A DNA stretch of 49,209 nucleotides from positions 1 through 49,209 of the forward strand of contig CAJINV010000006.1 of assembly GCA_905178155.1 (NCBI GenBank). Reading direction: 5' to 3'. Every line of letters starts with the position of its first letter. The stretch's first letter is position 1. The position numbers and the translations under genes are program-made. The notes under the pieces were generated by a model. It saw nothing but the letters and a program-made list of their open reading frames with translations, was not told the origin of the DNA and did not search any database. Shown here piece after piece: positions 5,583-48,150 of this stretch. Source of the stretch: Amoebophrya sp. A120. Taxonomy: Eukaryota > Protista > Dinoflagellata.

Positions 5583-8500
5583 CTACTTCCTGCTCTTCCA
5601 TATGGGGCGCTTGAACGACGCCGGTCCAGTGGTCAGCCTCGGGGTCTGGTCTCCGCCCGTCACCTCGGCGGGGTCGTCTGCCGGCTTCTCCAGCGGTGGA
5701 AGTGTGAGGCCCGCGCTGTCGTCTTCCATTTTTGCGAGCTCCGCGGCGTTGAAGTAGGACACTTGGAGGCCGTTGCCCAGGGTGATGGTTTCCGCGTCGC
5801 ATCCTTCTGCGTCCAGGAGCCGCAGGATTTCCCTCCTCACCTTCAACGTGCAAACCGCGAGCAAGTCCGGGGGCATCGCTTGGAGCGATTCCACAGCGCA
5901 TCCTCAGCAAAAATGCCCCCACCCCAAAGCTGTCATGCAAATGCGCATTGACGCGAGCATTTGTAATGCGCATCTACATCTTCTACTCCTGTTTGCAGCA
6001 TTACAAATGCCAAAACACGATTAGAAATGCCTCCTATGGAGTCCATAAGGGGCATTTGCAATCGTGTTTTGGCATTTGTAATGCTGCAAAAAGGAGTGGA
6101 AGATGGCTTTCTCATGCGGTTACCCTTGCTAACCAGCACTACCCTGCAGGTGGAAACCTGTCATGCGCAACTGCCAAAACTTGGAGATTTGCTTTGCAGA
6201 TTCACCAACTTGGCTATAGGGTGGGGCCGTTTTTGCTCAAGATACTGTTGCACGCAGTGCCCCCCCGGACAATTCCACTGTCTCCGACGGAACCAGCACG
6301 GTGCTGTAAAATTGCCGGCTCTCGTAGAGATGACCCAGTGGCAGGACGTGACGGACGCGTTGCGCGTCTTGGACCGAAGCGGCCCCATCCATTCGGACCC
6401 CGAACGGGTTGGCCACTTTCTGCCCAATTGACTGGTAGTGGTCGTATTCTGAGAGCAGCTTTGTTACCCGGGCGTGTATGCATTGCAAATATCAATCTTG
6501 GTCTGGAACACTCTAATTTGTAATGCTAAGCGTGGATCCGATGCAAACAAATCTGTGTTGCATGATCACCAAAAGTTGTGAACTTTTAACCAAGTTGAGA
6601 GCAGACACTTTCTCATGCAGAACAGGCATGATACGGATCTCACAGCATCTGTCATGCTAGGTTCTGCATTCCAGAAGTCATGCGTCATGGAGAATCTGCA
6701 TGACAAGTCTTGCACTCTTCCAGACAAAGACATTTTTGCACTGGATATTGTGAAACGACGGGAGTTCGATTATCCAGGACTTCAGGGACTGCTGGATGGT
6801 ATATGGAATAATATTATCGAATGCAAATATGTCTGGGTCTGCAAGAATGCAACTTGTTTTGCTGCATTTGGATGGCAAAAAAATCTACATTGCATGAGCA
6901 GCAAAAGGAATCTTTTTGTTGCTACGCGGAAGGTGCATTTGTCATGCGGAATAGGCTTCAAGAAGCCCTCAAAAAATCTGTGGTGCTATCGCATGCATCA
7001 CACACATCATGCCTCGTGCAAAGCGTGCATGACAAGTCTTCCAATTTTCCAGACCCAGACATAATTGCATTTGATAAATACCAGGCACCGGCTGCGTCGT
7101 CGACTGGGGTGCTGTTTCGCTGACCGGCTTTGGAGAAGGGCTAGGGATTGTGTTGGTGACAAGTGGTGGTGGTCCCTTCGCTTCCATCTCGACGTAGTGG
7201 GACAACAGCTCGAGTTCGCTCTGGGCCCGCGTGGCGATGTCGATCAGTTTATCCTGAGTAGAAACGTCCCCACCCCATAGTCAAGTTCGTAAATCTGCAA
7301 CACAAATCTCGAAGTTTTGGGAGTTATGCATGACAAGGCTCCATCTGTAGTACTTTGTAGCAAGGGCAGCAGCATCACAAAGACGCCTGCTTATTCTGTT
7401 TACAGCATTACAAATCCGCCCAGAACACGACTACAACTTCCTCTCTCGCGGATGCGTATTACAGATTTTTGTGTAGATGCAAATCTGCATGACAACAACT
7501 ATGGGGTGGAGACTTTTTTACACAGGATACATTTTGTTGTGGAAGCGCGAACCGTAGTTGAAGTACTCCGTCGTGACTATCAAAAGGAAAAATCCCCCCA
7601 CCCCATACTCAAAGGGAGATTTGTATAGTATGATTTGTGATCACAAATCGCGTTGTCATGCTACAAGGTAAGAGATGCAGATTTCAGTGCTGGCTGGCAT
7701 GGGAAAGCTTTGCGTCTTCAGCATGACAGGAAGCAACTGGAAACAGGAAACAGCATGACAAATTTCCTGCAAACGAAGGAACAGCTGCGTCTTTTGGCCT
7801 TCTAGCAATACAAGTCGATTTGTGGTCACAAATCAGCATCACAAATTTCCTTTTTGATATGGGGAGGGGGGATTTTTCCTTTTGATAGTGACCTGGTTCG
7901 TGCTGAACATCGCGCTATCCAAAATGGTGTTCAACAGGTCGGTATGGATTGCAAAAGTGTCTGGTTCTGGAAGAATGCAACGTGTGATGCTATTTTTGGA
8001 ACCTAAAAAAATCTGTATTGCATGACCAGCAAGTACAGGCGTCCAGTTTTTGCGCTGCGGAGAGGGCATTTGTCATGCGGGATAGGCGTCATGATACCCG
8101 CAAAAAATCTGTGATGCTGGGGCATAGTACATCGCAGACATCACGGGCCGTGCAAAATGTGCATGACGAGCCTTGCAATCTTCCAGACCCAGACATATTT
8201 GCATTTGATAGGCGGTGAGTTCAATGTTCGGGTTATCGTGAGACAAGACGTCCCCGCGCCCCATAGATAAGATGGGAAATCTGCTAGAGAAATCGACAGG
8301 CTGTGGCTGTTGCGAATACAAATTTCAGGGTCGGAGTGTAGTTGTATTTCGCAAGTAGTATTCTAGCAGCATCACAGAGCGCAAATACCATGCTGATTCG
8401 AGCAACACAAATTATCTCAAAACACCACCAGAAAATGCTTCTCATGGGAACGAAAGATTTTACGCATGCAGAATTGCATTACAACTCTGGGTTGGGGACG

Positions 8501-10135
8501 TTTTGACACGGGATACGGGTTGCCGCAGTTGATCAAGCAGTCCCGGATGTAGTGTGTCGTGTTCTTATGAAAGTGCGCAACCCCTCCTCCCCCTCCTTTG
8601 TCATGCAAAGTACCAACTCCACGCCTTCCCTCTTGGCACTGTTTGCATGACAAATTTTGGCCGCCAAACTAGCACTAAAACCCTGCGCAAATTTGTCATG
8701 CAAAACTTGCACCCCAGCTGACGCTTGTGTTGCTTCTATTCATGCCCTATAAATGAGGGCGAGGGGGGGTTGTGCACTCTGATAGTTGTTCTCCACGGGT
8801 TCCATCTCTCGGACTATGCATTGCAAATATCGCTCGACGTCTGGAGAAGTGCAAGATTTGTCATGCTTCTATAACTGCAGAGTTTGTCGTGATGCGAGTC
8901 CCCGAGAAAGCTCTTGTCCTGACCATACAGAAAAACACATCGTCATGCAGAATGCGCAGCAGGTGCACTGGCCGTGCAAATTTTTCTCATGCTTGGCTGG
9001 TGATTATTACTGTCATTCTTTACAAGATAGCATTACAAAGTTCGTGGTCGAGAACAATATTTGCATTGCATACCCACCGGGACGCCTTCGGGTGCGAGGA
9101 TGGCTGCGACTTCCGCTAGATTTTCCAGTATCCCGTATCCTGAGTAAAAACGAGCCCACCACCCGATAATCAAGATGGGGATATATTTTTGGCAACACAA
9201 AAAATCCTGAAGTTCCGAGAGTCACGCATCACAAGTTCCACCTCTCTGTGCTGTAGTGCAGGATATCGACAACTACAGCCGCATCACAAAAACACCAGCT
9301 CATCCTGTTTACAGCATTACAAATGTCAAAACTCGGTTTGAAAAAATGCCTCGACTGGGATTTCGCATTACAAATGTTCCGTGTTAATTTTCAAATCCGC
9401 ATGATGAGAACGCTGGAGTGGGGACGTTTTGAGTCAGCATAGCCCGACCGAGACGTTGTACCCTTCTTCCCCACCGAGGAGTTGCGCCATGGTTGCCGGC
9501 GCCGCACTCCGGATCTCCTGCGACGGTTGGAGGGGCGCCCACAGATGCTGCAGCTTCTGCCCGGATTGCACGCATTCTGTTTCCAGCACCGCCAGTGACA
9601 CTTGGCCGCCCGCCGAAAAAAACATGTTGAGAGCGCCGCGGACTTGCACGTCGTATACGACGGCGTTGACTTTGACTCCCTCGGTTCTCGCGGGCTGTTC
9701 TGCACTATTGGGGGAGTGGTGTCTTCTCGCAGCGGCTTCTGCTTGTTTTTGGCGCAGAAGTTTCATCTTGTGCTCACTGTCATCTCTGTTGCCGTCGTAC
9801 GTGAGGTGGACGGGTTTCACTATCGTGTAGAAAAAAGTGTTTCACTGTATGCGATTCATTGTTGAAGTTTTGCATCAAGAGTTCGCTACGCATGACATGC
9901 AGTCCTCCTGAGGGAAAAGATCTTTCAAAACCTGATTTCCTCTTGCATGTGTTGTACAACTAGCAAGACAAATCCGTCTGTGTTGCATTCTTTGCGTCAC
10001 AAGCTCAATACAGGGAAACACTTTTTTCTTCCGATATTCAACGCAGGCGAAGGCGCCACGTTGGACTGGTTGTCAAACACGGTAACTTCACTTCTGCCGT
10101 CATCCGTGAGTGGGGACCTATGGACGCGGAGTGAG
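5583..10135 (-). CDS. Gene G1, unknown protein, at least 12 exons separated by 11 introners; 5' end unresolved
   Basis: Manual splice is open throughout: SLRVHRSPLTDDG..KPVHLTYDG..NVSVG|ILENLAEVAAILAPEGVPV|EMEPVE|NTTHYIRDCLINCGNP|NIELT|LLNTILDSAMFSTNQV|TTEYFNYGSRFHNK|IDIATRAQSELELL..|IPYTIQQSLKSWIIELPSF|HARVTKLLSEY..|VESLQAMPP..WKSRK*. Confidence 0.85.
5899..6244. mobile_element. Introner, B-like family
   Basis: catcctcagcaaaaatgcccccacccc ... ggggtggggccgtttttgctcaagata; degenerate TSD cagcg/ctgtt; removal keeps frame. Confidence 0.75.
6477..6747. mobile_element. Introner, family A
   Basis: tatgcattgcaaatat ... atttttgcactggata; TSD gcgtg/ttgtg. Confidence 0.85.
6815..7076. mobile_element. 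Introner, family A
   Basis: tatcgaatgcaaatatgtctgggtctg ... cagacccagacataattgcatttgata; TSD aatat/aatac. Confidence 0.9.
7250..7529. mobile_element. Introner, family B
   Basis: tatcctgagtagaaacgtccccacccc ... ggggtggagacttttttacacaggata; TSD cagtt/cattt. Confidence 0.9.
7578..7887. mobile_element. Introner, family C
   Basis: tatcaaaaggaaaaatcccc ... ggggatttttccttttgata; perfect TSD gtgac. Confidence 0.92.
7943..8210. mobile_element. Introner, family A
   Basis: Family A TIRs; TSD gtcgg/ggcgg. Confidence 0.9.
8234..8515. mobile_element. Introner, family B
   Basis: Family B TIRs; perfect TSD cgggt. Confidence 0.9.
8566..8784. mobile_element. Introner, family D
   Basis: tatgaaagtgcgcaacccc ... 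ggggttgtgcactctgata; TSD gttct/gttgt. Confidence 0.85.
8815..9072. mobile_element. Introner, diverged family A
   Basis: tatgcattgcaaatat ... atatttgcattgcata; TSD cggac/cccac. Confidence 0.8.
9136..9441. mobile_element. Introner, family B
   Basis: tatcctgagtaaaaacg ... ggggacgttttgagtcagcata; TSD tcccg/gcccg. Confidence 0.85.
9821..10036. mobile_element. Introner, family E
   Basis: tatcgtgtagaaaaaagtgtttcactg ... cagggaaacacttttttcttccgata; TSD ttcac/ttcaa. Confidence 0.88.
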
Positions 10136-11329
10136 TACCATGCAAGAGGACAAAAGAGCTGCAATTTTAGTGCGATTCTGGACCACGATGGAGACGATGC
10201 AAGACACAGAAGCCTGCCATGCGAAACTTTTGTCACACGCAGCATATTTATTTTACCTCATATTTTGATGTACTAAGCTGCGCACAACAAGTTTTTGTGA
10301 TGCAACTTCCTTTGGATGAAAAGAGCCTGCCTGGCTAGTGAGTCGCACCATTGCAGTTTTTTTGTCGGATAAATACACTGGCCGGTTTGTGGTGGGTGAG
10401 ATGCCCGTCTGCAGGAAGAACGCATCGCACAGAAAACCGCTAGCAAAGGGTGTTTGCAGATGTGCAGACAAATTTCGCTCTGGGCATGACAGGTTTGTTC
10501 TTGTGCTGGTTGTAGTATGCACGGCTGCTCTGGGGCGATGGCGATTACTATTTTCATGACAGAAGAACTTTCACAACACGTCCACCGCTGCGCTAGCATT
10601 TTTCTGTTCCATATTGCTTTTGGTGCTGGCCGGGCGCGTGCACCTGGAAAAAAGACATTATTTCACAGGTCTAAAAGAACGTCAAGCGATTTATTGGTGA
10701 TTTGAGGTTATTTACTCGTCCTGCAAGTGAGCTGTTGAAAACACGCGCAGTTGTGCTACAGAAAATTATCACAGAACAACAGGACTATGGCGAATAAATC
10801 CAGCACAATTATGGAAAGTCCTCATGATGCAATCGTGCAAGAATGAATCAAAACTGACAATAAGACGGTCCTGAGAGAAGATTTTGGACGAAAAAAAAAG
10901 TTCAAGGAGACGCAACAAAACCGAAGATGGAAGGTCTGGAGAGCAGCTGCAGCTGTCTCATGAAAAAAATGTTCACAGCAGACTTCTTTGAATATTGTCA
11001 CGGGTGTCTCAACGGATAGTGTCAACATCGGCAATGGATCAATGTCTTTTTTGGGCGTCTCGAGAACAGCAACATCACAATCAAGAACAGCCTCCTGCTT
11101 TTCAACGCAGACTACTGAAGAGTGTTCGCACGAACATACGAACAGGGAATAGTTTCTTTAGCGCACACAATTGTGAAACAAGTAGGTTCTTTCTCGCGTA
11201 CGAGGGTTTGCTTCGTCGGGTCTTTTTGCAAGACAGCTCTGAATATCTGAAGTTTCTTGGTTTTGTCTACCTCAGCAATTTTCAATTAGCCCCTGCAGCG
11301 AAGTCATCGGAACTACATCACGTCGCTGG

Positions 11330-11649: not shown

Positions 11650-13745
11650 TTAACGCACAGGTTTTATCAAATGCAAAAATGTCTGGGTCTGGAACATTCT
11701 AAACTTGTGACACTGTCTCTGGATTCCGAAAAAATTTGTATTGCATGACCAGCAAGAGGACTCCAGTTTGTGCCATGCGGAGAGGGTTCCCATGCTGTAG
11801 AGGTATTGCAAAGCGCTGTAAAAATCTGTGATGCTACGGCACGCATCACAGACATCATGGGTCATGGAAAATATGCATGACAAATCTAGAAATCTTACAG
11901 ACCCAGACATTTTTGCAATTGATAGGTTTGAATCTCGCACCCGCGTTCGGTCCATTCATGGTCCTTATCCACCGCAAATCTGTCTGGGCTTGGAACCAAA
12001 ATGCAAGCTTGCAATGCGAACGCTGGGTCACATGAAAATTTGTGTTGCAGCGTGAGTGTGCCGCCTACGAATTGCCCACTTACTGCTGCACAAAAAGCGA
12101 ACCCTCCCCCGTATTGAAGATGCATGATGGGGTAGGAGAAAAACACGGATAACCGGCTTTGCATCATCCAAATAAAGAGGCATGACAAATACGCAAGATC
12201 TACTTCCCGACCCAGACATTTTTGCGTTGGTTATTCTTCTTGGCGTCCTGCAGAGCCTTGCAGCCGACCTCCAGCCTATGCATTGCAAATATGTCTGGGT
12301 CTGGAGAAATGCCAGGTTTGTCATGCATAGTTTCCATGACCGATGACTTTCATGATGCAAGCCCTAGCATCACAGACTCTGCGAAGGCTTTCTGATGCTT
12401 TTACCGCATGAGAAATGCCCTCTCCGGGTAGCAAATACGGATTTTATCGCACATGATCTAAAGGCACCATGACAAGTCGCATCCTTCCAGACGCAGACAT
12501 ATTTGTAGTGGATATAACCATCGCGCGAACAATACCTGCTCTCTATCCTTTGCAAAAACCCCTCCCCCCCCCAACTTTATCATCCAAAGATGCGGGCCCA
12601 AGACGTTTCGCATGCGTAACCCCATGAGGGAATTTGTATATGGTAATTTGAAATTTGTCATGCTACCAGCAGGATAAATTGATCGATCTGTGATACGGCC
12701 GCACCAGCTGACTTTAGGTACTTGCAGCACTGCGATGGCCCGATTGTGCTATGCTAACATCTCCTGTTCCTGTAGTACACAGATAGTGGGGCGGAGGCGT
12801 TCTTCCTCAAGATACTCTTTCTCAGTGTAGTGCTGGTTCGGAGTAGTGTGGCGGTCGCGAAAGGCGGCGTCGCCTGTATGGAAAAATAAAAATGTATACG
12901 GAAAGAAAGTGATAAGCGAGAAAATAAATGATTGCATTTGTCATTCATCAACAGCTCGCCGCTGAGCATAGGTTTATCATGCCTACCGGCTCTATGAGAA
13001 GAACGTCATCTTTGGTGGAACTCATCAACGGAATAATCAAAACTTACAACCCAAGTGCGTTTTCGCCTCCGGCACCGCTGAATCCATCGTTTTGACCACG
13101 TCTTCCAGGAGGCGACAGGACTTCTTGTCTTTTTTTCCCACGTATTCGAACAGATCCCGAATGTACTGTGTTGTTTGGGTGCAAGAGAGGTCTCTTGTTT
13201 CAGAAAAAAATCATACGAAGTAGTAAGCAGAGCTGGAGACGGGGCGAAGCCCTGGTGAAGAAACAAAATAAAGTCCGAACTGGTCGTCGCACCAGGGGCC
13301 CGAAATGTTTTCTTTACCTTCTCCCAGAGCCCGTGCGCACTCACCGGCTCTTCGTGCATCGGAAACATTGTCAACAGCCCTTTGACCATGTACTTGTCGT
13401 CTCCCGACATGCCTGTTTTTTTGGTTTTATCTGATAATAACCAAGTACACCTGCGTTCTCGGGCTCTGTGACAAAGTGACACTATCTTTCAGTTTCGACG
13501 AATTGTACTTATACAATGAGGAAAGGAAATCAGATTACGCATATTATACCGACTTTGATATAACGCTCTGCTGGCCCAGCGCGGGGGCACATGCCGACTC
13601 GGTTCTGCGTATGGTGGTGGGTGTAGCAGAAGTAGGTCAGGATTTCAAGCATCAACTCAGGTCCTCTGTTCTCCGGGATTGTTTGCGTGTAAAGCAAGTC
13701 GGGGTCCAACCCACAGCAGACAGCGAACAAAAGATCGCAAAGCAT
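11650..13745 (-). CDS. Gene P1, unknown protein, paralog of P2; 3' end uncertain
   Basis: Starts MLCDLLFAVCC..PELM..MCPRAG..IKVGI. Later exons splice to GDAAFRDRHTTPNQHYTEKE|QVLFARWL|EVGCKALQDAK. Confidence 0.65.
11665..11924. mobile_element. Introner, family A
   Basis: Family A TIRs; perfect TSD ggttt. Confidence 0.92.
11966..12233. mobile_element. Introner, family A
   Basis: tatccaccgcaaa ... tttgcgttggtta; degenerate TSD gtcct/ttctt. Confidence 0.8.
12277..12514. mobile_element. Introner, family A (opposite orientation to 11665)
   Basis: Family A TIRs; TSD cagcc/taacc. Confidence 0.85.
12544..12814. mobile_element. Introner, diverged family B
   Basis: tatcctttgcaaaaaccc ... ggcgttcttcctcaagata; TSD ctctc/ctctt; removal keeps frame. 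Confidence 0.75.
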
Positions 13746-14011
13746 TTTTCACGTAATATGGGTAGTACGAGAGAAAAAAAAGCTCCAAGATAACGGCGGG
13801 TTTATCCAGCACCGAATTTTATTATACAAAAGAGCTGGCGTCCCCTGCTGTAGCAGGTAAGGACAGGAAGGTTCACGACAAAAAAAGAGCTAGAAAGAGA
13901 CGGCGGAAGACAAGAGCACCGCAATTTTATCATTATGAGTGGCGCTTTATTGTGTCGAATCACTCAAGCTAACGTCGGCTGGGGCCACAGATGCAGGTCG
14001 AAGTCTTTTGA

Positions 14012-14134
14012 TCTCTCTCTCATCCGACGACCCAAAAACCCTTAATCCTGTCTAATGCTCCGTCTCTCTCTCATCCGACGACCCCAAAACCCTTAATCCT
14101 GTCTAATGCTTCGTCTCTCTCTCATCCGACGACC
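14012..14134 (+). repeat. 51-bp tandem repeat (~2.4 copies)
   Basis: tctctctctcatccgacgaccc..aaacccttaatcctgtctaatgct is repeated. Confidence 0.85.
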
Positions 14135-14362
14135 ACACGAGCGACATGCCGACGACTCAAAAACCCGTAGTCCTCTCTTATGCTTCTCGACCCTCTCTGA
14201 TGCTCTTGCAAACGACCAGCAGAACAACGTGCCTTGGAGCTAGACAACTGTTGTGCTCTGCCAGCTGATTTCGCAGAATTTCAAGTAAGGCCTAAAGCTT
14301 CTTTCAAATAAATCAACATTAGTGCCGTTTGAAGCGGTCGGAGAAGTAAGCGAGTTCTTCTA

Positions 14363-14623
14363 TTATTGCTTGTCCATCTCAGCCCGCCGCGCAGCCTCCA
14401 TTTCTTGCCACTGCATCTCCCGTTCTTCATCCCAGGATTGGCCTTGGTCCACCGAAGGGGAACCCACTTCCACGGACGGCGACCTGGCTACGACAGGAGG
14501 AAAGCGCCGTCGGGGCTGTAGGTTCCAGCGCCGTGCCAGGTACTCGTCCTCCGACGGCAAGCCACGCAGTTTGTCCAGCAGGTCGTCCAACCTGTCCCGC
14601 AAACACTGGAACAGCAGGTACAT
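14363..14623 (-). CDS. 86-aa small ORF, copy 1
   Basis: MYLLFQCLRDRLDDLLDKLRG..AEMDKQ*; conserved from start to stop with 19711-19971. Confidence 0.6.
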   Translation of the reverse strand: MYLLFQCLRDRLDDLLDKLRGLPSEDEYLARRWNLQPRRRFPPVVARSPSVEVGSPSVDQGQSWDEEREMQWQEMEAARRAEMDKQ

Positions 14624-15151
14624 GGGCGTGGTGCTATAGACTGGCAGTTGCTTGTTGGTTGTTGTACTTCGATAGATAGAAACAAAAATATCTGTGTGTC
14701 GGCCCCGACGGCACACTCCGTTTAGCTAGAACAATACACTGTGGAAGGACAAGCGAAAATGTTCATTCAGTGGCACACGAAGATCGCTCATTCACTCGGC
14801 TCCAGTGCGACAGTCATGCCGACATCAGAAATTCAGCGTACAAGGAACAACGAAGCCTACCACTGGCGATGCGACCTGATCTTTGGTTCATTCCCTGTAC
14901 ACGTCGAGCCCTCAAACGAATTTCTCTCCTGCTGTCCTCTCTCACAGTACGAAATCAAAATGCAGACGTTGCTTTTTGCGTCGAACACGCGCTGCGCTTT
15001 CACGCTCAACAACGAAGATTCATTTCCAATAAACGGCGCGACTTGGTTTTGTAGCCCACGACGCTTCCAGAGATACCGATCCGCAACTTTTTGGTCTAGT
15101 AGAGGTCTTTTTGCAAGACAAATATCACCCGAGAGGTCGAGGGGCTTGTTC

Positions 15152-15280
15152 TCAAGTTCAGCGATAGTTCAACGAAAGGATATTTTTTCCAGCTGCTAAT
15201 ACTAGGTATTGAGTGCTTTTCAAGTTCAGCGATAGCTCAACGAAAGGATATTTTTTCCAGCTGCTAATACTAGGTATTGA
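15152..15280 (+). repeat. 69-bp tandem duplication
   Basis: tcaagttcagcgatag..ctaatactaggtattga occurs twice. Confidence 0.85.
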
Positions 15281-15599
15281 CAAAAATAAAGGCCTGCTTT
15301 TCTTTATAAGTTCACCAGTATAATGGTGCCTTCACTTCCCCGCAGAAGACTATCAAAAGCGGTCCGCCACCAGAAGCGACTCGAGCAGGAAAGCGAGCCA
15401 CCGGGTGAAGTATTCTTCCACGCCCGTGAGCCCTACGAACCCCGTCGCGGCGTCCGACTGCAACCGGTCCGCAGTCACGATGGCCTGCTCGATAATTTTA
15501 CCTCGATTTGCGTCCTTCTTCGCGAGCTCGCGCAGAGCACGACGGGTCCACTGGGGTTGATGGGTTTTTTTTTCCGCCGAAAATCCTTAATTGATATTT

Positions 15600-34109: not shown

Positions 34110-34330
34110 AAGTGCGCGCGGTTTCGCACCTGATTCTTTGAGCCCGGCCAGAACAAAAGTTGCCACTTTTGCCTTTCAAAAAGTGGCCACCTTTCTCTCC
34201 CAAAAAGTGCGCGTGGTTTCGCACCTGATTCCTGAAGCCCGGCCAGAACAAAAGTTGCCACTTTTGCCTTTCAAAACGTGGCCACCTTTCTCTCCCAAAA
34301 AGTGCGCGCGTTTCGCACCTGGTTCTTTGG
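34110..34330 (+). repeat. 95-bp tandem repeat (~2.3 copies)
   Basis: aagtgcgcg..tttcgcacctg..aaaagttgccacttttgcc..ctcccaaa is repeated. Confidence 0.9.
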
Positions 34331-38303: not shown

Positions 38304-39447
38304 CTACGCTCTTCTCGTTAATAAAATACGTTTTTGCCGGGCACCTTGCGATCGTGGCGCTATTTCTCTTTCCATACTCCTCACATGCTATCATACGAAA
38401 AAAGTGTTTCCCTGTAAGGATTTTGCAAGTTGTGCATCACATGAAACAGAAAATCTGCCATGCGCGCTTCCCAATTTAAACCGCTCCTAAAAGTCCAATG
38501 TCTTGCGGGTGTAGCAAGACAGATACTTCTGTGTTCCATTCTATGCATCACAAGTTCACAGTGAAACAGTTTTTTCTTGTGATACATGCGACTCAATCTC
38601 CGTCCACTCTGGAGCCCGGTAGCGGTGCCCCGTGCCTTGCAGCAACACAGACGTGCAGCGGCCGGAAGACAGGAAGCCCGAGGCCGCCAGGTCACTTGCG
38701 TATCAAATGTAAAAGTGTCTGGGTCTGGAAGAATGCGAAATTTGTTATGCTGTTTTTGCATGACACAGAATGTCTGTCATGGAAGCCCTAGCATCACAGA
38801 TCTTTAGAGGCCTTCCTGATACCTGTGCTGCATGACAAATGCCCTCCACGCGTAGCACAAACCGGACTCCTTTTGCTGGTCATGCAATACAGAATTTTTT
38901 AGAGTCCAAAGTTAGCATCACAAGTTCCAACCTTCCACACCCAGACATTTTTGGAATCCATATTGCGGCCTGGCAGTCGATGATTTTGTCCTCGTCGCCG
39001 TGGAGAATCAGCACTTTTGGTCGACTATCAAGTGCAGAAATGTCTGGGTCTGGAAGGATGTAGCTTGTGATGCGCATTTCAGAACACACAAAAATCTCTG
39101 ATGCATAGGCAGCAAAAGCTGCTCACTTTCTCTCACCAAAATGGGTGACTTGTCATGCGGATTCGGCATTGCGGAAGCTTCTCGAAACCTGTGATGCTAG
39201 AGCTTCCATGCCAGACCTTCTGTGTCATGCAGAAACAGCATCACTATTCCAGACCCAGACATTTTTACATTTGATATCGACGCGGTGAAAAAACAGACGA
39301 ATTATCGGTGCTGGCAACACGACCCGGAAAAGATCCCGCTCGTTTCTCCTTGCCACCAGTTCTTTCTGCAATCTCGACTTTCACACTGCTTGTTGCAACA
39401 TCCGTGCTACAGTTTTTATCTGCGGCGGATGAAGCCGGCGCGTCGAG
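38304..39447 (-). CDS. C-terminal part of an alpha/beta-hydrolase; 5' part rearranged or lost in the gap (possible pseudogene)
   Basis: Spliced SPRR|PKVLILHGDEDKIIDCQAA|SDLAASGFLSSGRCTSVLLQGTGHRYRAPEWTEIESH|VRSMERE..RRA*. HGDED (catalytic Asp) and GTGH (catalytic His) motifs are present; no GxSxG was found. Confidence 0.72.
38389..38584. mobile_element. Introner, family E (opposite orientation to 9821)
   Basis: Family E TIRs; perfect TSD catgc. Confidence 0.92.
38701..38962. mobile_element. Introner, family A
   Basis: Family A TIRs; perfect TSD ttgcg. Confidence 0.92.
39026..39276. mobile_element. Introner, family A (duplicated at 41396-41646 and 43638-43888)
   Basis: Family A TIRs; perfect TSD tcgac. 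Confidence 0.92.
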
Positions 39448-39523
39448 TATCCTGTGTAAAAACGTGTCCATACCAGAGTCGAGATGGGAAATCTGCTAGA
39501 CAAATCAACCAGCTGTGGTTGCT

Positions 39524-40165
39524 NNNNNNNNNNNNNNNNNNNNNNNNNNNNNNNNNNNNNNNNNNNNNNNNNNNNNNNNNNNNNNNNNNNNNNNNNNNNN
39601 NNNNNNNNNNNNNNNNNNNNNNNNNNNNNNNNNNNNNNNNNNNNNNNNNNNNNNNNNNNNNNNNNNNNNNNNNNNNNNNNNNNNNNNNNNNNNNNNNNNN
39701 NNNNNNNNNNNNNNNNNNNNNNNNNNNNNNNNNNNNNNNNNNNNNNNNNNNNNNNNNNNNNNNNNNNNNNNNNNNNNNNNNNNNNNNNNNNNNNNNNNNN
39801 NNNNNNNNNNNNNNNNNNNNNNNNNNNNNNNNNNNNNNNNNNNNNNNNNNNNNNNNNNNNNNNNNNNNNNNNNNNNNNNNNNNNNNNNNNNNNNNNNNNN
39901 NNNNNNNNNNNNNNNNNNNNNNNNNNNNNNNNNNNNNNNNNNNNNNNNNNNNNNNNNNNNNNNNNNNNNNNNNNNNNNNNNNNNNNNNNNNNNNNNNNNN
40001 NNNNNNNNNNNNNNNNNNNNNNNNNNNNNNNNNNNNNNNNNNNNNNNNNNNNNNNNNNNNNNNNNNNNNNNNNNNNNNNNNNNNNNNNNNNNNNNNNNNN
40101 NNNNNNNNNNNNNNNNNNNNNNNNNNNNNNNNNNNNNNNNNNNNNNNNNNNNNNNNNNNNNNNNN
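39524..40165. other. Assembly gap
   Basis: Run of N. Confidence 1.
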
Positions 40166-43100
40166 NGCGGGCGCCGTCAACGCGCAGCAGCCCGGGCCCA
40201 GCGTCCCGATTTAATCGGCGAAACAGGTTGGGCCAAGGCGCTCTCCCGGCCGATTCTATCGTCGAAACAGGTCGCGCGGAGGTGTTTCGACGTCGAAACA
40301 CCTTCGCCCGAGCTGTTTCGCCGCTAGAATCGGGAAACACAGCCTGGTTGGCTCTCGTCTGCGCAGCCTTTTCTTTCTTGGCCGGCCCCCGTTCCAGAGG
40401 TTTTTCCCAGGCGGGCGATACCTCTGCGTTGGAGGTGGGGCCGCACCTTTCTTGGCCTTGCGAGCGGGACACGCACTGCCGCTGTGCGACAACGTGTGTG
40501 CCTGCCCAATTCATATACGTGTTATTTTTGAGTCATGGTTGGCGCAGAGCCCGTGGGGCTCACGGCCACCGAGACCACCACGCGTTTCTTGGAAGGCAGG
40601 AGTGAATGGAAGGCCAGCAACCTCGGGCGCTCGGCGAGTCGGTATTGGCAAGGCGCCCGGCCGCGCTATGGAGCGCGGCTGCATGCTCTGTATCTGTTTG
40701 CGTTTGGTATGCGGACATAGATATGCGTGCGCTTGTCTTGCTATGTGAATTGCTCACTGGTGGCCGTGCTCTATATGTTCTCTTCCGCCCTCGTCCTTCC
40801 CGGGGGCGTAGAGCCTTATTTCCAAATGGGACGCCACAGTGAAAATCCCACCTGGTAAGAGCGGTAGGAAAGTAGTGAGGCCGACGAGATCGGGCGTGAA
40901 TCGCGCCGGCGCCTGCACGTGCACAGAGCCCTTTTTGCGGCGTTTGAGGTGCCCCGCCGGGCTCTGCAGCGCACTCGTTTCCGCTGGCTATCGTGAATAT
41001 TTTCCGATAGCTATCGTAGTCGCGATGGTACCGGAATAAATGAGTGTGCGTCCATAGCTGTTATGCAACACAGATTTTTACTTGCTTCAGAATCTGCATC
41101 ACAGGTCTGCATCCTTCCAGTCGGAGTCCAGGGGGGGGTATTTGCAATGCATAGAATTCCGATTCGTCAAACGGGTACTTGGGTCCTGATACCTGTGCTG
41201 CATGACAAATGCCCTCCACGCGTAGCACAAACCGGACTCCTTTTGCTGGTCATGCAATACAGAATTTTTTAGAGTCCAAAGTTAGCATCACAAGTTCCAA
41301 CCTTCCACACCCAGACATTTTTGGAATCCATATTGCGGCCTGGCAGTCGATGATTTTGTCCTCGTCGCCGTGGAGAATCAGCACTTTTGGTCGACTATCA
41401 AGTGCAGAAATGTCTGGGTCTGGAAGGATGTAGCTTGTGATGCGCATTTCAGAACACACAAAAATCTCTGATGCATAGGCAGCAAAAGCTGCTCACTTTC
41501 TCTCACCAAAATGGGTGACTTGTCATGCGGATTCGGCATTGCGGAAGCTTCTCGAAACCTGTGATGCTAGAACTTCCATGCCAGACCTTCTGTGTCATGC
41601 AGAAACAGCATCACTATTCCAGACCCAGACATTTTTACATTTGATATCGACGCGGTGAAAAAACAGACGAATTATCGGTGCTGGCAACACGACCCGGAAA
41701 AGATCCCGCTCGTTTCTCCTTGCCACCAGTTCTTTCTGCAATCTCGACTTTCACACTGCTTGTTGCAACATCCGTGCTACAGTTTTTATCTGCGGCGGAT
41801 GAAGCCGGCGCGTCGAGTATCCTGTGTAAAAACGTGTCCATACCAGAGTCGAGATGGGAAATCTGCTAGACAAATCAACCAGCTGTGGTTGCTTCACATG
41901 ACAAATTTGTCCTTGTAGTGCAATCCTGTTTCAGTAGTTGAGCAGCATATACAGATCTAGCATATAATCAGGGTGAGACTAGAAAATGCTTCTCCTGGGG
42001 CTCCGCATGAGAAACTTTTTTGGCATGCAGATTTGCATGAGAACTCTGGCGTGGGGACATTTTTAATCAGGATCATATCGAGGAACGCTTCCAGGTGTCG
42101 GCACTTCAGATTGATGCCGCCGCGTTTGATGGCGTTGTTCAGTCGCTGCTTGAATTCCGCTTCGTCAAACGGGTACTTGGATCCGTGGTAGAGCGGCAGC
42201 ATCTGGTTTTGCAGGGTTTGGAGTTGTTGGATTCTGCTTTTCGGCAGGCGCCCGGCTCCTTTGTTTCGCCTCTTTCTTCGACGCTTGCCACTGCCAGCAC
42301 GCGCTGGCCGGGCGGCTTTTCTCGTCAAGTTCCGCCGGCAATAGGTTATGGACAGCTGTGGCCCTGTGCCGCGGAGTTTTCCCCCATTTCCTGTTCTGTT
42401 TCTGTCCCGCGGGCGCCGTCAACGCGCAGCAGCCCGGGCCCAGCGTCCCGATTTAATCGGCGAAACAGGTTGGGCCAAGGCGCTCTCCCGGCCGATTCTA
42501 TCGTCGAAACAGGTCGCGCGGAGGTGTTTCGACGTCGAAACACCTTCGCCCGAGCTGTTTCGCCGCTAGAATCGGGAACCACAGCCTGGTTGGCTCTCGT
42601 CTGCGCAGCCTTTTCTTTCTTGGCCGGCCCCCGTTCCAGAGGTTTTTCCCAGGCGGGCGATACCTCTGCGTTGGAGGTGGGGCCGCACCTTTCTTGGCCT
42701 TGCGAGCGGGACACGCACTGCCGCTGTGCGACAACGTGTGTGCCTGCCCAATTCATATACGTGTTATTTTTGAGTCATGGTTGGCGCAGAGCCCGTGGGG
42801 CTCACGGCCACCGAGACCACCACGCGTTTCTTGGAAGGCAGGAGTGAATGGAAGGCCAGCAACCTCGGGCGCTCGGCGAGTCGGTATTGGCAAGGCGCCC
42901 GGCCGCGCTATGGAGCGCGGCTGCATGCTCTGTATCTGTTTGCGTTTGGTATGCGGACATAGATATGCGTGCGCTTGTCTTGCTATGTGAATTGCTCACT
43001 GGTGGCCGTGCTCTATATGTTCTCTTCCGCCCTCGTCCTTCCCGGGGGCGTAGAGCCTTATTTCCAAATGGGACGCCACAGTGAAAATCCCACCTGGTAA

Positions 43101-44059
43101 GAGCGGTAGGAAAGTAGTGAGGCCGACGAGATCGGGCGTGAATCGCGCCGGCGCCTGCACGTGCACAGAGCCCTTTTTGCGGCGTTTGAGGTGCCCCGCC
43201 GGGCTCTGCAGCGCACTCGTTTCCGCTGGCTATCGTGAATATTTTCCGATAGCTATCGTAGTCGCGATGGTACCGGAATAAATGAGTGTGCGTCCATAGC
43301 TGTTATGCAACACAGATTTTTACTTGCTTCAGAATCTGCATCACAGGTCTGCATCCTTCCAGTCGGAGTCCAGGGGGGGGTATTTGCAATGCATAGAATT
43401 CCGATTCGTCAAACGGGTACTTGGGTCCTGATACCTGTGCTGCATGACAAATGCCCTCCACGCGTAGCACAAACCGGACTCCTTTTGCTGGTCATGCAAT
43501 ACAGAATTTTTTAGAGTCCAAAGTTAGCATCACAAGTTCCAACCTTCCACACCCAGACATTTTTGGAATCCATATTGCGGCCTGGCAGTCGATGATTTTG
43601 TCCTCGTCGCCGTGGAGAATCAGCACTTTTGGTCGACTATCAAGTGCAGAAATGTCTGGGTCTGGAAGGATGTAGCTTGTGATGCGCATTTCAGAACACA
43701 CAAAAATCTCTGATGCATAGGCAGCAAAAGCTGCTCACTTTCTCTCACCAAAATGGGTGACTTGTCATGCGGATTCGGCATTGCGGAAGCTTCTCGAAAC
43801 CTGTGATGCTAGAGCTTCCATGCCAGACCTTCTGTGTCATGCAGAAACAGCATCACTATTCCAGACCCAGACATTTTTACATTTGATATCGACGCGGTGA
43901 AAAAACAGACGAATTATCGGTGCTGGCAACACGACCCGGAAAAGATCCCGCTCGTTTCTCCTTGCCACCAGTTCTTTCTGCAATCTCGACTTTCACACTG
44001 CTTGTTGCAACATCCGTGCTACAGTTTTTATCTGCGGCGGATGAAGCCGGCGCGTCGAG

Positions 44060-44316
44060 TATCCTGTGTAAAAACGTGTCCATACCAGAGTCGAGATGGG
44101 AAATCTGCTAGACAAATCAACCAGCTGTGGTTGCTTCACATGACAAATTTGTCCTTGTAGTGCAATCCTGTTTCAGTAGTTGAGCAGCATATACAGATCT
44201 AGCATATAATCAGGGTGAGACTAGAAAATGCTTCTCCTGGGGCTCCGCATGAGAAACTTTTTTGGCATGCAGATTTGCATGAGAACTCTGGCGTGGGGAC
44301 ATTTTTAATCAGGATA
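44060..44316. mobile_element. Introner, family B (duplicated at 41818-42077 and 39448-gap)
   Basis: Family B TIRs; perfect TSD tcgag. Confidence 0.9.
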
Positions 44317-44800
44317 TCGAGGAACGCTTCCAGGTGTCGGCACTTCAGATTGATGCCGCCGCGTTTGATGGCGTTGTTCAGTCGCTGCTTGAATTCCGCT
44401 TCGTCAAACGGGTACTTGGATCCGTGGTAGAGCGGCAACATCTGGTTTTGCAGGGTTTGGAGTTGTTGGAGCTTTTTTCTTCTTGCAGGTCATGCATACG
44501 CTGCAGACATCTCTGCATCATCTGGAAAGATGCAGCCTGTAGCCCGTATTTTGCACTCCTGCAAAACCTGCGCTGCACAACCTGGAGAACGCAGCTCGTA
44601 GTGCGTGCCGTGTTCGAGAAAGCGCCATAAACAAAAAATGCCGCGCCTGCCTGTGCTCAGAAGCTGTGGAAGCACACGTACTTCGATCAGCGTTCCAAGC
44701 TTCGCCCAGACCCACTCAAGTTCTCCGATGATATTTTCTAACCCTATATCCTTACATGTGCTAGCGAGATCCACGAGGCGCAGGCACCAGCTCGGGAAGA

Positions 44801-45047
44801 TATCAACTGCAAACATAACTGGCTCTGGTTCTGGAGGTGGTCACGCAGGTTCATTGGTTCATCCTATTTGTTTGCCTCTGCATCACAAATTTTTAGCGCT
44901 TGGCTTATCCTTGGTTATCCGTGCATCACAAGTTTTTGGCTATCCTTGCTCGCAGGTGGTTATTGCTATTGGTTTATCCTTGCATCACAAATTTTTAGCG
45001 AGTTTGCAGCTCTCCAGACCCAGAGACATATATATTTGCAGTGGATA
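44801..45047. mobile_element. Introner, degenerate family A with internal tgcatcacaa repeats
   Basis: tatcaactgcaaacata ... tatttgcagtggata; no TSD. Confidence 0.7.
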
Positions 45048-45979
45048 TGGCTTGCGGGAGTATGTTTTTATAGATGAGGTCCTTTTCCCGAAATCGGTTG
45101 CGTCACGCCGCTCCTTCGCCACCGCCCAACTTCAACAGATTTTGGAGATCCACGCCGCAGCCCTGGGCGAGAGCAGGTCGGAGCACCTTTTTGTGTCAGT
45201 TTTTCTTGATGGATACCGGAGGAGAACGAGAAGCTTTGCACAGCTCTAATCAATGTATTAGTTTAACAATGTTGACAGAGCAACAACATCCATTTTCCAA
45301 AACAAAAACACGAACTCATGACCGTTTCGTTCTCCGGGTCCGTGGCGTAGAAGTTGCTGGCGCTTCAAAGGTGGATTCTCAACAGCGGCCGCACTCGAAC
45401 CAACTGCGCGCTCCCAGAATTCCGCAGCGCTAGTACTCTTCTCCGAACGTCACAGCTATCTCCTCGGCCCCTAACGAACCTTCTCTCAACTTTTACTTTA
45501 TTCGAAGGTCGTTTGCAAAAATTACAAATGTCCGTTCTTGTGAGACCCTTACCAGCGTAGCCGCTAATAACGGTTTTGCGAGTAGAGCGGCAGCATCTGG
45601 TTTTGCAGGGTTTGGAGTTGTTGGAACGCGTCCCGCAGCCAGATCCGCAGCCTAGGGAGGGACATTTGGGTCTAGCTGCTTAGCATTACAAACGGCTGTC
45701 CTCTAAGCCCAACAGCATGCCAAAGCGCTTCCATAATGGCGCGGAAGCCTCTGCATTTGTCTTCTTGCAAGACAGACGTGATTTGTGGTCTCAAATCAGC
45801 AAGACAAATATTCGGAAGCACGCCTTTTCGATATGGGGAGGGGGGATTTTTCCTCTCAATACTTACCCTAGCCTACTAACTAGCGTTCTCGGACGCTGCG
45901 TCTGCTATATCAAATGTTTTGTGCAATCTGCCATCGGTGTAAACAACAAATATACAAGTACGTTATCTCGTCGCTTTCC

Positions 45980-46294
45980 TATTACAATGAAAAATGCCCC
46001 CACCCCCGAACTTGAAAGCATTTGTATTGCAAATCTTTCCAAATGAATATGAAACATTCGCCCTCTTGCGTGTATCAGCATCACAGATTTCCGATCGTGA
46101 ATAGCAAAAATTTGTATTGCAAAAGATCCCAGCAAGAGCGGTGCTTGTCATGCAAGCGATGCGAAACACGACTAGAATTATCTGCATCAGAAAGATTCTT
46201 ACTCCTTTCATGCATGACAAAAAGCTTTCATTTGGAAACTTCGCATCACAAATTGTTGCAATTTCAGGGGTGGGGGGCATTTTTCCCTTTGATA
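45980..46294. mobile_element. Introner, B-like family
   Basis: tattacaatgaaaaatgcccc ... ggggcatttttccctttgata; perfect TSD tttcc. Confidence 0.9.
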
Positions 46295-46751
46295 TTTCCT
46301 CGCGCTGGTTTTCGTCCTCGTTTCTCCCGCGCTGCTCCGGAGGCGAGCAAGTGGAGCGCCATGCTTATCATCTGCAAAAATGTCTGGGTCTGGAAACTTG
46401 TGTTGCTGATACTTGCATTGCAAACTTGCTGCTTGTACGGCGTAACAGCATGAGAAATTTCCCTCAGCTCCTTGCCGATTCATTCGTCTTTAGCATTACA
46501 AACTGTTAGGAACAACAGCTGCGCGGTGGATCCGGCTGGACCACGAGGACCTTATCAAATGCAAAAATGTCTGGGTCTGGAAACTTGTGATGCTGTGTGG
46601 CGTATCATGAGGAGGCGACAATTGCTGGCTCAGCATGGCAAGTTTCTGAGCTTCTAGGTGTTGCCTATTCTGCATGGTAGAGCGGCAGCATCTGGTTTTG
46701 CAGGGTTTGGAGTTGTTGGAACGCGTCCCGCCCTGTTTTGCTCCACACACC

Positions 46752-47024
46752 TATTGGAAGGAAATATTCCCCCTCCCCATATCGAAAAGAAAATTTGTGC
46801 TGCTGATTCTTGACTTTGTCTTGCGCACAAGGCAGTCTGTCATGCAGTTTCGCCTATGTCGGACTTGTTTCTCATGCTCAGCTGCTAGCCGGATGCGGAT
46901 CCAAAAGGGCTTAGAATATGCCGACAAGCTGCTCTCGCTGCAATACAAAGCTCATTTGTATACACAAATCCAGCAACACAAATTGTCTTTTGAATACGGG
47001 GTGGGGTCTTTTTTCTCTTTGATA
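46752..47024. mobile_element. Introner, family C
   Basis: TSD acacc/acgcc; empty site at 48299-48303. Confidence 0.9.
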
Positions 47025-47094
47025 ACGCCATAGCGGCTCAGCGTGCCACTGGCCTGAAGGGCGGTCAGCTTGCCCCGCAACTCGATGACCTGGG

Positions 47095-47311
47095 TATCGT
47101 GAGAAAAAAGTGCTTCCCTGTAAGGATTTTGGCAGGTTTGCATCACAAATTGGTAATACACATGACAAAGAAAACTTGCCATGCGAGGTTCCTAGGCGAA
47201 AACAGAGCTAAAAACTCAATGTCTTGCATGTGTAGCAAGACAAACGCGTCTTTGTTCCATTCTATGCATCACATATTTATTACAGTGAAACAGTTTTTAT
47301 TTCTCGCGATA
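47095..47311. mobile_element. Introner, family E
   Basis: Perfect TSD ctggg; empty site at ~48364-48368. Confidence 0.92.
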
Positions 47312-47883
47312 CTGGGGGTCGGTCGTGTACTTGGACAACCGGTCCTCGGGCAGCACTGCAGATGAACCGTCTGGGCTGGTTGCGGCGGAGGTTTTCTTCA
47401 CTGGGTTCTCCGCCTCGTTCTGCTCTTCGCTGCTGCGCGCGCCAGCATAAGGGGCAGTTGACCAGACGGCACACATGTCGCAGCACAATTCTCTTCCACA
47501 AACCGCTTCCGCGGGAGCACGCAGCGTCTGGCTGCTTTCACGAGTTGCACGGCTTTCGGTAGCGCTTGTTTCTCAGTCCTAATCCTGCCTCCCGCCCGCG
47601 GCTCTTGCGCCTCGACCAGCGCGCGGCCCAAGCTGTCCCACAGAGCTGGGTAGCTGACCACCGGCTCTCCTGTTTTGCTGCTCACCCCCACTGCGGCACG
47701 CATGGCTTGCGAGACTGCGCCTGGCTGCTGCAGTACTTCTTCCGCCCGTTGCACTTCCCTCATTGCTGGCGGCGCGTCCGCACCGCCCGGACCCGCAACA
47801 GGAGCCCCTGCTCCAGCGCCGGCCTGCTGCTCTTGCTCGTTGACCTCACCGATTCGCAGGACTAGTTCCACCGCGGCACGGAT

Positions 47884-48150
47884 TATCAAATGCAAATATG
47901 TCTGGGTCTGGAAAAGTGCAACGTTTGTCATGCACGTTTTGCATGACGCGTGAGGTCTGTGATGCATGCCATAGCATCACAGATTCTGTGAGATCTTTTC
48001 CATGCCTTTTCCGCATAAGAAACCGTCTCTCGGCTTTCTCAAAAGTGAACAGCTTTTGTTGGTAATCATGCAACACAGATTTTTGTATGATTCAGAACTA
48101 GCATGACAAGTCGCACTCTTCCAGACATCCAGGGATATTTGCAACGCATA
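47884..48150. mobile_element. Introner, family A
   Basis: Family A TIRs; perfect TSD cggat. Confidence 0.92.

Follow-up and report, generated by a model that had tools for sequence, protein, structure and literature searches.

Introners of Amoebophrya sp. A120 were described by Farhat et al. 2021 (PMC7789003), and are given there as repeated families of ~240 nt with terminal inverted repeats (TIRs) of 8–20 nt, a motif of TAT, 7 nt and at least three A residues, direct repeats of 3–5 nt (5 bp in Fig. S19) and non-GT-AG junctions. The text of that paper reports no clear dinucleotide signature and treats the placement of the splice sites with respect to the hairpin as varying or not known; the repeat layout also occurs in 15 % of canonical A120 introns; U2, U4, U5, U6 and 83 of 89 spliceosomal proteins are kept, and U1 was not found. 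Table S4 of that paper, whose junctions may contain aligner bias, places T at +2 in nine of nine predominant non-canonical classes of A120 and in nine of nine of A25.

The non-canonical introns of Fritillaria borealis (PMC11282704; bioRxiv 10.1101/2025.08.15.670264) are likewise of MITE-like origin, with TIRs and target-site duplications (TSDs), and are removed without GT-AG by an adapted spliceosome; they thus provide a precedent for a spliceosome that accepts MITE-derived non-GT-AG introns. Fritillaria, however, retains U1 and its introns mostly have defined ends (AG-AC, AG-AT), whereas in A120 the first intron base and the last four are free and U1 was not found. Introners of Micromonas and Aureococcus (PMC11282704) are also short transposons with TIRs, and part of the intron comes from their duplication, with the exon restored; they depend on canonical sites, however, of which one is brought by the element and the other co-opted from the TSD, whereas the A120 elements need neither G nor AG. 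The nonconventional introns of Euglena (PMC12501133) resemble those of A120 in terminal pairing at fixed, uneven distances, in a likely MITE origin and in being the majority class of the genome. Their code, N3CDG…CH'GN5-6|R, calls for a purine at exon +1 and is not that of the A120 elements: +4 is T in 63 of the 69 introns considered below, no more than 26 of 54 have a purine at exon +1, and GT-AG introns lie in the same register. Finally, in Yarrowia, Trichomonas and Giardia (PMC2483917) the 3' end is a set distance from an adenosine, with branch A residues at −6 and −8 (counted from the distances stated there) that bracket the −7 position of A120; those introns have a strong ACTAAC consensus and AG, whereas A120 has neither and its branch role is a predicted one.

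The window analysed here is a stretch of 49,209 nt from A120. Two of its exons match proteins named Amoebophrya sp. A120 with 100 % identity, and a third is 99 % identical over its matched stretch. Between positions 5899 and 48150 the curated set holds 64 TAT…ATA inverted-repeat elements, three duplicated copies included, where a first-pass annotation made from the letters had put the number of MITE-like elements at about 50. Its description of them is confirmed: 60 of the 64 fall within the 196–346 nt that it gave (range 140–547, median 262), TAT-N7-AAA occurs at 86 of 128 element ends, and 26 elements have a perfect 5-nt flank. Both TAT and ATA are exact in 51 elements. A strict scan for TAT…ATA pairs 150–450 nt long with identical 5-nt flanks also returned 26 matches, compared with 3.6 ± 1.9 (maximum 9) in 100 local shuffles. 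Two of these matches, 35694–36092 and 44732–45072, were rejected as chance pairings, and two real elements with perfect flanks, 25601–25846 and 27611–27891, begin TAC or GAT; the total of perfect flanks is therefore still 26. After seven catalogue rows (three duplicated copies, four doubtful) had been dropped, flanks matched at a length of 5 nt in 23 of 54 elements, and at 3, 4, 6, 7 or 8 nt in at most one.

Among 69 introns, BLAST of the interiors gave five multi-copy clusters (13, 10, 4, 3 and 2 members; ~70–82 % identity) and 35 singletons, with one further pair that has only a nested element in common. The first-pass figure of at least seven families is thus plausible, and five multi-copy clusters are what the comparison bears out. 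Related DNA contigs have very high summed depth over the elements, in line with repeated families. The elements sit in exons in both orientations and have the TIRs, fixed-length TSDs and short size of MITEs; no transposase domain was found in the 18 window frames scanned, and none was found in A120 by Farhat et al. 2021 (PMC7789003). With TAT-N7-AAA repeats, 5-nt direct repeats, families and absence from a likely transcript contig, they share the features of the A120 introners given above and show no difference from them. They are already described introners, as the first-pass annotation had indicated, and since they are published for A120 their discovery is not news. What is new is the cut position, left variable or unknown in Farhat et al. 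2021: the window introns are cut at −1/+4 relative to the element, with invariant U and A at intron positions 2 and 3 and a nearly invariant A at −7.

The cut was placed with one assembled contig (X3 record 9), taken to be RNA by guess only and covering one gene, and with two annotated proteins, P0001 and P0002, whose models are probably transcript-based and possibly not independent of that contig. Features and coordinates are collected in Table 1. On the transcript, the removed piece is N+TAT…ATA+NNNN, one base before TAT and four after ATA, and because these 1 + 4 flank bases leave with the element the exon is restored. This register matches 12 of 12 coordinates of the contig, whose positions 467/468, for instance, join 31541 to 31309 (231 = 226 + 5 nt removed), and 45 of 46 junctions in the two proteins, all of the genes tested being on the minus strand.

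Table 1. Genes, introns and elements of the window (positions in the whole stretch)
Feature	Location	Strand	Basis or remark
P0002-matching gene	2181..10670	-	Matches aa 65–686 exactly
Element introns 2414–2668, 2719–3031	2414..5603	-	In register; P0002; before the 5899–48150 range
Decayed introns 3447–3696, 3874–4042, 4273–4473, 4503–5249, 5315–5603	2414..5603	-	In register; P0002
GT-AG introns 3722–3841, 4095–4231	2414..5603	-	In register; P0002
Introns of elements 5899–6244, 6477–6747, 6815–7076, 7250–7529	5895..8785 (part)	-	At 6477–6747 the fixed register alone fits
Introns of elements 7578–7887, 7943–8210, 8234–8515, 8566–8784	5895..8785 (part)	-	P0002
Elements 8815–9072, 9136–9441, 9821–10036, 10139–10371, 10423–10613	8811..10614	-	P0002, frames
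Elements 11665–11924, 11966–12233, 12277–12514, 12544–12814, 15882–16089, 16138–16402	11665..21480	-	Other frames; predicted junctions
Elements 17495–17742, 17991–18130, 18669–18970, 20825–21091, 21290–21480	11665..21480	-	Other frames; predicted junctions
P0001 gene	25207..37287	-	1083 aa, N-terminal RING finger; 28 exons, 27 introns
Introns of elements 25279–25535, 25601–25846, 25912–26151, 26189–26457	25275..26458	-	Missing from X3 record 9 by length sum
Intron of element 26494–26786 + 5 nt	26490..26787	-	Flank copies differ; protein permits fixed register only; X3 piece begins 26788
Introns of elements 26952–27212, 27264–27587, 27611–27891, 28382–28590	26948..28591	-	X3 record 9, protein, length sum
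Intron of element 28645–28922 + 5 nt	28641..28923	-	Flanks differ 5/5; 3' triplet ACA; X3 piece begins 28924; length sum
Introns of elements 29505–29784, 29861–30177, 30230–30489, 30545–30822, 31315–31540	29501..31541	-	X3, protein, length sum
Decayed element intron	31727..31976	-	From protein only; one possible cut, in register; X3 piece ends 31726
Outer intron with element 32331–32603 inside its 5' inverted repeat	32058..32609	-	Protein model
Element intron after 12-nt micro-exon	32674..32881	-	TAT-edge cut would create stop codon
GT-AG intron	32894..34440	-	Shares the register, beginning G-T-A and with A at −7; terminal stem absent
Decayed element introns 34466–34752, 34760–34994, 35024–35256	34466..35256	-	First two around 7-nt micro-exon
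RING-region introns of elements 35495–35762, 35925–36250, 36325–36591, 36671–36965, 37022–37263	35491..37264	-	Protein model
Elements 38092–38376 (doubtful), 38389–38584, 38701–38962, 39026–39276	38092..48150	-	Predicted junctions
Copies of 39026–39276: 41396–41646, 43638–43888	38092..48150	-	Predicted junctions
Elements 41818–42077, 44060–44316, 44801–45047 (doubtful), 45980–46294	38092..48150	-	Predicted junctions
Elements 46752–47024, 47095–47311, 47884–48150	38092..48150	-	Predicted junctions

In the P0001 gene, every one of the 27 introns follows the pattern N+TA(T)…A(TA)+NNNN, and the model translates exactly to P0001, exon 28926–29498 being 100 % identical to it. At the nested site, removal of the inner element restores the outer TAT-N7-AAA motif. 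The GT-AG intron 32894–34440 contains a 94-nt tandem array, and the region 38092..48150 lies partly in a triplicated, rearranged part of the window. For the P0002 gene, removal of every element at +5 leaves 833 codons of open frame; junctions in 2050–13900, outside the stretches with read evidence, are placed from P0002. The sole misfit among the protein junctions, where P0002 corresponds to the element plus 6 nt at 8815–9072, is likely a gene-model error. The first-pass annotation had stated that deletion of an element plus one TSD restores open frames and recognizable domains. Long frames are indeed opened (526, 812, 296 and 249 aa); for the domains, the RING finger of P0001 scores above Pfam cut-offs, whilst its beta-helix match is weak and P0002 has no Pfam domain. 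Searches of 19 single exons against Pfam yielded nothing beyond RING hints below the cut-off and one weak, unrelated match, and a protein search with exon 9443–9814 gave no match among longer proteins. Frames by themselves do not separate +5 from +2 or +8, as they fix the offset only modulo 3; it is the contig and the annotated proteins that fix it at +5.

For scoring, 8815–9072 (annotated +6) and 9136–9441 (compatible) were left out of the protein junctions. The fixed register fits 44 of the remaining 44 and five other positions fit 35, 27, 23, 20 and 17; in 14 protein-derived introns among those analysed the N-T-A start was chosen among allowed cuts, four of them being built by hand around micro-exons. 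Thirty junctions had been catalogued before the protein sequences were consulted, and for these the fixed register is favoured over a free position by a likelihood ratio of ~10^6.5. Six protein junctions permit no other position. The register is unchanged at 28645–28922 and 2418–2667, where the flank copies mismatch at five of five bases and free choice by an aligner is impossible, and it is also unchanged where the stem is slight or missing (3722–3841, 32894–34440, 3447–3696). Family members in opposite orientation (7246–7530 reversed; 25908–26152 and 30541–30823 forward) keep the transcript-relative position, and it is shared by three GT-AG introns, in two of which just 5 and 6 of 16 stem pairs are formed. 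A possible GT-AG intron at 12874–13047, without transcript support, has A at −6 rather than −7. We regard a fixed register for the element introns as very probable.

GT is present at 14 of the 44 protein junctions, AG at three and both at three, which agrees with the earlier remark that no consistent GT/AG is offered; T at +2 is nevertheless found in 44 of 44. A GT-AG pair of the same length within 12 nt exists at six junctions, three of which are the GT-AG introns themselves, and use of cryptic GT-AG sites was rejected, as any cut position on either strand yields at most two GT-AG of 54. Over the 69 introns, U+2 and A+3 are invariant and A−7 is found in 68, the exception being a G in 25597–25847 with a U•G pair retained. 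The first base and the last four are free. The bases before A−7 lack the U2-pairing consensus of U2-type introns, −9 being G in 30, T in 20, C in 16 and A in three. Among the 19 introns whose flanks have decayed furthest, U+2, A+3 and A−7 are each retained in all 19, compared with T at +4 in 15, T at −6 in 15 and A at −5 in 16. This conservation is one-sided, as scored on the 44 protein-defined junctions (+2 versus −5, p = 0.012; +3 versus −6, p = 0.026). The intron copy was also examined for a gain of C at −3, which was not supported (7 versus 4, p = 0.55).

Evidence on the level of removal comes from both kinds of contig. Sixteen elements are absent from the likely RNA contig; DNA contigs (X1) run through whole elements with no mismatch (15 of 668 joints listed), at depths of 32 and 40 over the least repeated element bins versus 29–34 over exon. 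The element-free contig ends 317 nt beyond the stop codon, with zero depth after. A raw RNA dataset with the same species label (X9) gave 94 partial reads, all at one ~30-nt repeat end, and a further run (X4) was shallow; neither was informative at the locus. As the RNA contig lacks elements that DNA contigs carry at full depth, we conclude that these are introns and not excised DNA, with removal at the RNA level being highly probable. The first-pass view of the elements as non-GT-AG introns thus holds, for introns of the Amoebophrya type from which the element and 5 nt are removed, and its alternative of DNA excision does not fit the one DNA sample.

With moderate confidence, we propose that these transposon-derived introns leave with five flank bases at a fixed position, with removal probably taking place on RNA and probably through a spliceosome that recognizes U-A at positions 2–3 and, at −7, a predicted branch A in place of GT/AG. 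Spliceosomal chemistry for the element introns, taken by itself, we consider somewhat more probable than not. The elements would have originated as non-autonomous DNA transposons making a 5-bp duplication, and each inverted repeat would hold both signals, read forwards as the donor N-U-A-U and backwards as a U-rich tract at −19 to −15 with an A at −7; insertion would therefore work in either orientation and in any target sequence. The 3' cut may be set by distance from the predicted branch A, with the stem helping but not being required. Against this reading, the bases before A−7 form no U2-pairing consensus, the G−7 intron with its U•G pair suits a stem model, and the predicted stem would hide both signals. 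In the spliceosomes that have been studied, the first and last G are important for exon joining.

A non-spliceosomal cut-and-join enzyme that measures from the stem, so that 1 nt overhangs on the 5' side and 4 nt on the 3' side, and that would release a circle as proposed for Euglena, is unlikely but has several observations in its favour. The predicted terminal stem is strong (median 13 of 16 pairs; median pairing probability 0.72, above 0.5 in 49 of 55), six of 16 changes in the terminal three pairs are U•G wobbles, G at −7 among them, the first and last intron bases are free, and the Euglena code likewise has a stem at fixed, uneven distances from both cuts. The register, however, persists at near-zero pairing (3447–3696, 3722–3841, 34466–34752), it is shared by GT-AG introns, whereas hybrids are rare in Euglena, and the conservation is one-sided rather than pairwise. 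Doubtful, too, is the first-pass idea that removal reads stem plus TSD: the cut does not move when flank copies differ at five of five bases or when there is little or no stem, and U+2, A+3 and A−7 are kept while their pairing partners change.

Rather less probable still is spliceosomal chemistry in which the stem places the 3' cut, with the branch elsewhere and A−7 kept for pairing or protein contact. This would suit both the G−7 exception and the poor resemblance of the bases around −7 to a U2-type branch context, and it is near the hairpin picture described in the legend to Fig. 4 of Farhat et al. (PMC7789003); A−7, however, stays in six of six introns whose +4 partner became C or A, and stemless introns retain the register. 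That the cut varies within the 5-nt duplication, the fixed register being an effect of small sample or annotation, appears very improbable. The Fig. 3 legend of the same paper calls sites variable, the family rows of Gozashti 2025 (22 of 58 A120 rows listed) mix co-opt and carry, and one annotated junction is +6, but mismatched flanks exclude a cut at the TAT edge at nine junctions, the next position out at 17 and the fixed register at none. DNA excision, in the manner of ciliate internal eliminated sequences or by a transposase in an expressed nucleus, would account for inverted repeats and a direct repeat of which one copy's length remains, the type of X3 being guessed, yet it is the least probable of these readings in view of the DNA contigs (one sample, 15 of 668 joints listed), the end of the element-free contig and a register that follows the transcript and not element orientation.

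These findings bear on the manner in which most A120 introns are removed with no GT-AG and, it seems, no U1. As the end bases vary only with the target sequence that was duplicated, the 'highly variable splice sites' reduce to one rule, and the fixed register singles out three bases, predicts the position of the lariat branch and offers a means of correcting gene models. If a spliceosome performs the removal, it would tolerate any base at +1 and any 3' dinucleotide, beyond the relaxed cases in the papers cited here. We further suggest, tentatively and as a proposition falling a little short of probable, that all A120 introns, GT-AG included, are on one code, with donor N-U-A and a branch A always at −7, and with neither a first G nor AG. 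If true, wherever and in whichever orientation it inserted, a TAT…ATA transposon with a 5-bp duplication would form a perfect intron, which would explain the genome-wide invasion and imply exon joining without contact between the G residues at the two intron ends.

The elements are MITE-like inverted repeats running from TAT to ATA between copies of a 5 nt flank duplication. A strict scan of the window for TAT…ATA with identical 5 nt flanks returned 26 matches, compared with 3.6 ± 1.9 in 100 local shuffles. Curation by end profile and by hand gave 64 elements within 5899–48150, 26 of them with a perfect flank, bearing out the series that the first-pass annotation had described there. Sixty of the 64 measure 196–346 nt, and TAT-N7-AAA is found at 86 of the 128 element ends. 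Five multi-copy families are shown (∼70–82 % identity), four with members in both orientations; all gene models in the window lie on the minus strand. Inverted-repeat pairs with neither a flank match nor a clear gene model occur at 38092–38376 and 44801–45047, a short 140 nt element with long inverted ends at 17991–18130, and similar copies of a ∼300 nt coding segment, spotted by eye, at 14341–14640 and about 19700–19980. Within 38814–48300, three copies of a ∼2.3 kb unit surround an N gap; the region also holds one short coding fragment five times (42199, 44438, 45593, 46688 and 48240), and unpaired element ends lie at 46366, 46553 and 48910; the triplicated stretch is either rearranged gene debris or misassembly.

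Exons 28926–29498 and 6246–6470 are 100 % identical to P0001 and P0002, respectively, the proteins of genes 25207..37287 (−) and 2181..10670 (−), both assigned by their source to Amoebophrya sp. A120; exon 3034–3498 also matches P0002. Passages of Farhat et al. (2021; PMC7789003) describe >60 % of A120 introns as non-canonical, with inverted repeats consisting of a TAT start, seven looser bases and at least three A, direct repeats of 3–5 nt, and (Fig. S23 legend) repeats 1–5 nt away from splice sites; U1 is reported missing and the removal mechanism is left open. As such introns had already been reported in A120, the elements are a known class in a known host, to which a sharper cut rule is added here. 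No statement of the fixed register or three-base code set out below was found in the portions covered of PMC7789003, PMC12130899 (passages and, from the supplement, 22 of the 58 rows on A120), PMC12005148, PMC11282704, PMC11453091 and bioRxiv 2025.08.15.670264; Farhat Figs 3 and S19–S25 and Roy et al. (2023), outside this scope, may show part. Raw RNA reads carrying the same species label (X9) match the repeat end 30458–30489, then run into other sequence, and cover nothing else here. Judging from this match, another strain likely carries the same family of repeats, although passages of Farhat et al. (2021; PMC7789003) call the families strain-specific.

Sequencing runs were compared over 24300–33000. 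Contigs of X1, a DNA run that may be the window's own source, span whole elements with 0 mismatches (25606–26980, 28562–29594 and 31393–33000) at a depth similar to that of exons, which speaks against the IES-like DNA excision raised earlier as an alternative. X3, a run guessed to be RNA, gave one minus-strand contig of 3024 nt with six listed pieces in this region, the gaps lacking 231, 1155, 497, 881 and 1330 nt, or 1, 4, 2, 3 and 5 elements; at every gap the length step equals element plus 5 nt. A 16th junction ends at 31726, and all 12 coordinates checked agree with the model. This contig stops 317 nt beyond the stop codon, with zero depth past that point, as expected of a transcript. The joints covered were 15 of 668, which leaves room for rare element-free DNA; even so, removal of the elements from DNA is hardly credible. 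Shallow X3 contigs crossing exon–intron borders at 25937–26175 (depth 2.5) and 31771–31993 (depth 4.3), versus 14.6, represent unspliced precursor, retention or DNA carry-over.

A perfect 5 nt duplication hides the cut, which decayed flank copies make visible. In X3, the exon starts at 26788 and at 28924 each lie a single base beyond the element, and larger shifts are ruled out by two further X3 junctions; written in transcript sense, the introns have the form N+TAT…ATA+NNNN. When 27 introns are removed in this fixed register, the translation is identical to P0001, and removal of 17 gives aa 65–686 of P0002 exactly. Sliding the junctions one by one, the register fitted 44/44, compared with 35, 27, 23, 20 and 17 of 44 at other positions, and six of the 44 permit it alone. 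Among the 30 junctions whose cataloguing preceded the protein comparison, it fitted 30/30 versus 27, 20, 19, 17 and 15 elsewhere (likelihood ratio ∼10^6.5). Two of 46 junctions were omitted from the count of 44, namely 9136–9441 (compatible) and 8815–9072 (annotated at +6). The latter would suit a variable cut position, which we regard as highly improbable; since +5 keeps the P0002-gene frame open for 833 codons, +6 is read as a likely annotation error. Within 8815–10670, P0002 begins in another frame via the +6 junction, the frame under the +5 rule being ∼150 codons longer, so the N-terminus of the public P0002 model is probably incorrect. Because the annotated proteins are probably transcript-derived, they offer a second view, not independent proof.

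Across 69 introns, T at +2 and A at +3 (counted from the 5′ end) each occur in 69 and A at −7 (from the 3′ end) in 68, whilst any base is found at +1 and −4 to −1. Their stem partners are changed at −5 in nine, −6 in six and +4 in six introns. Where flanks carry 3–5 mismatches (19 introns), the three key bases are retained in 19/19 and the partners in 15–16. Conservation is one-sided at the 44 protein-defined junctions (P=0.012 for +2 versus −5; P=0.026 for +3 versus −6). Fourteen introns were found from proteins alone, four of them hand-built around micro-exons, an N-T-A start being picked among allowed cuts; the chance of such a start being on offer in all ten single-gap cases is ∼10^-9, and A−7, which played no part in choosing the cuts, is present in 14/14. 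Three of the 14 are GT-AG introns, and in some terminal pairing is almost absent. As the register is kept in mismatched-flank and near-stemless introns, flank match and stem are both dispensable for it. Thus, the earlier reading of the elements as non-GT-AG introns is upheld by the known class and the element-free X3 contig, a likely transcript, whilst its proposal that stem plus duplication is recognized is doubtful, as the register holds without either. Farhat Table S4 (PMC7789003) has T at +2 in 18/18 predominant non-canonical classes, aligner bias being possible, and is consistent with the three-base code. A possible GT-AG intron at 12874–13047 has its nearest A at −6 and may be an exception to the −7 rule.

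Element 32331–32603 is nested in the 5′ inverted repeat of intron 32058–32609, and taking it out rebuilds the outer TAT-N7-AAA motif. This arrangement suggests ordered two-step splicing, resembling that of fungal stwintrons. A 94 nt tandem array (33157–34186) lies inside a 1547 nt GT-AG intron, a 190 nt array (22557–24186) has a unit in common with 378–489, and 481–706, in the same 378–706 region, matches 33038–33170 in inverted form.

Micro-exons located between neighbouring introns and required by the annotated proteins
Feature	Position	Length (nt)
Micro-exon	34753–34759	7
Micro-exon	32882–32893	12
Micro-exon	8212–8229	18
Micro-exon	27589–27606	18

On balance, we lean towards removal by a re-specified spliceosome. 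The T of TAT would occupy the place of the T in GT, and insertion into a target AG then G would yield an ordinary GT-AG intron in the fixed register (e.g. 4095–4231). A−7 is the predicted branch point at a fixed distance from the intron end, and the A-run of the 3′ repeat would be read as a stretch of U (−19 to −15), in the manner of a polypyrimidine tract. Such a spliceosome would join exons without the G–G end contact. Orientation would be irrelevant because both element ends are the same repeat, and the exon would be restored exactly because 1+4 gives the 5 nt duplication; such restoration would give an advantage to transposons whose ends are TAT and whose duplications are 5 bp long. Branch distances of Yarrowia and Trichomonas, in passages of PMC2483917, bracket −7. 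Counting against a spliceosome, no U2-type consensus was found around −7 in the introns, the one intron with G−7 keeps a wobble pair, and both signals are predicted to lie within a strong stem. The pairing would suit the main rival, a stem-measuring enzyme of the kind suspected for Euglena (passages of PMC12501133), which is possible but unlikely given the near-stemless introns; a stem-guided spliceosome, facing the same introns, is less probable still. With the sharper rule, the question of splicing in A120 becomes testable.
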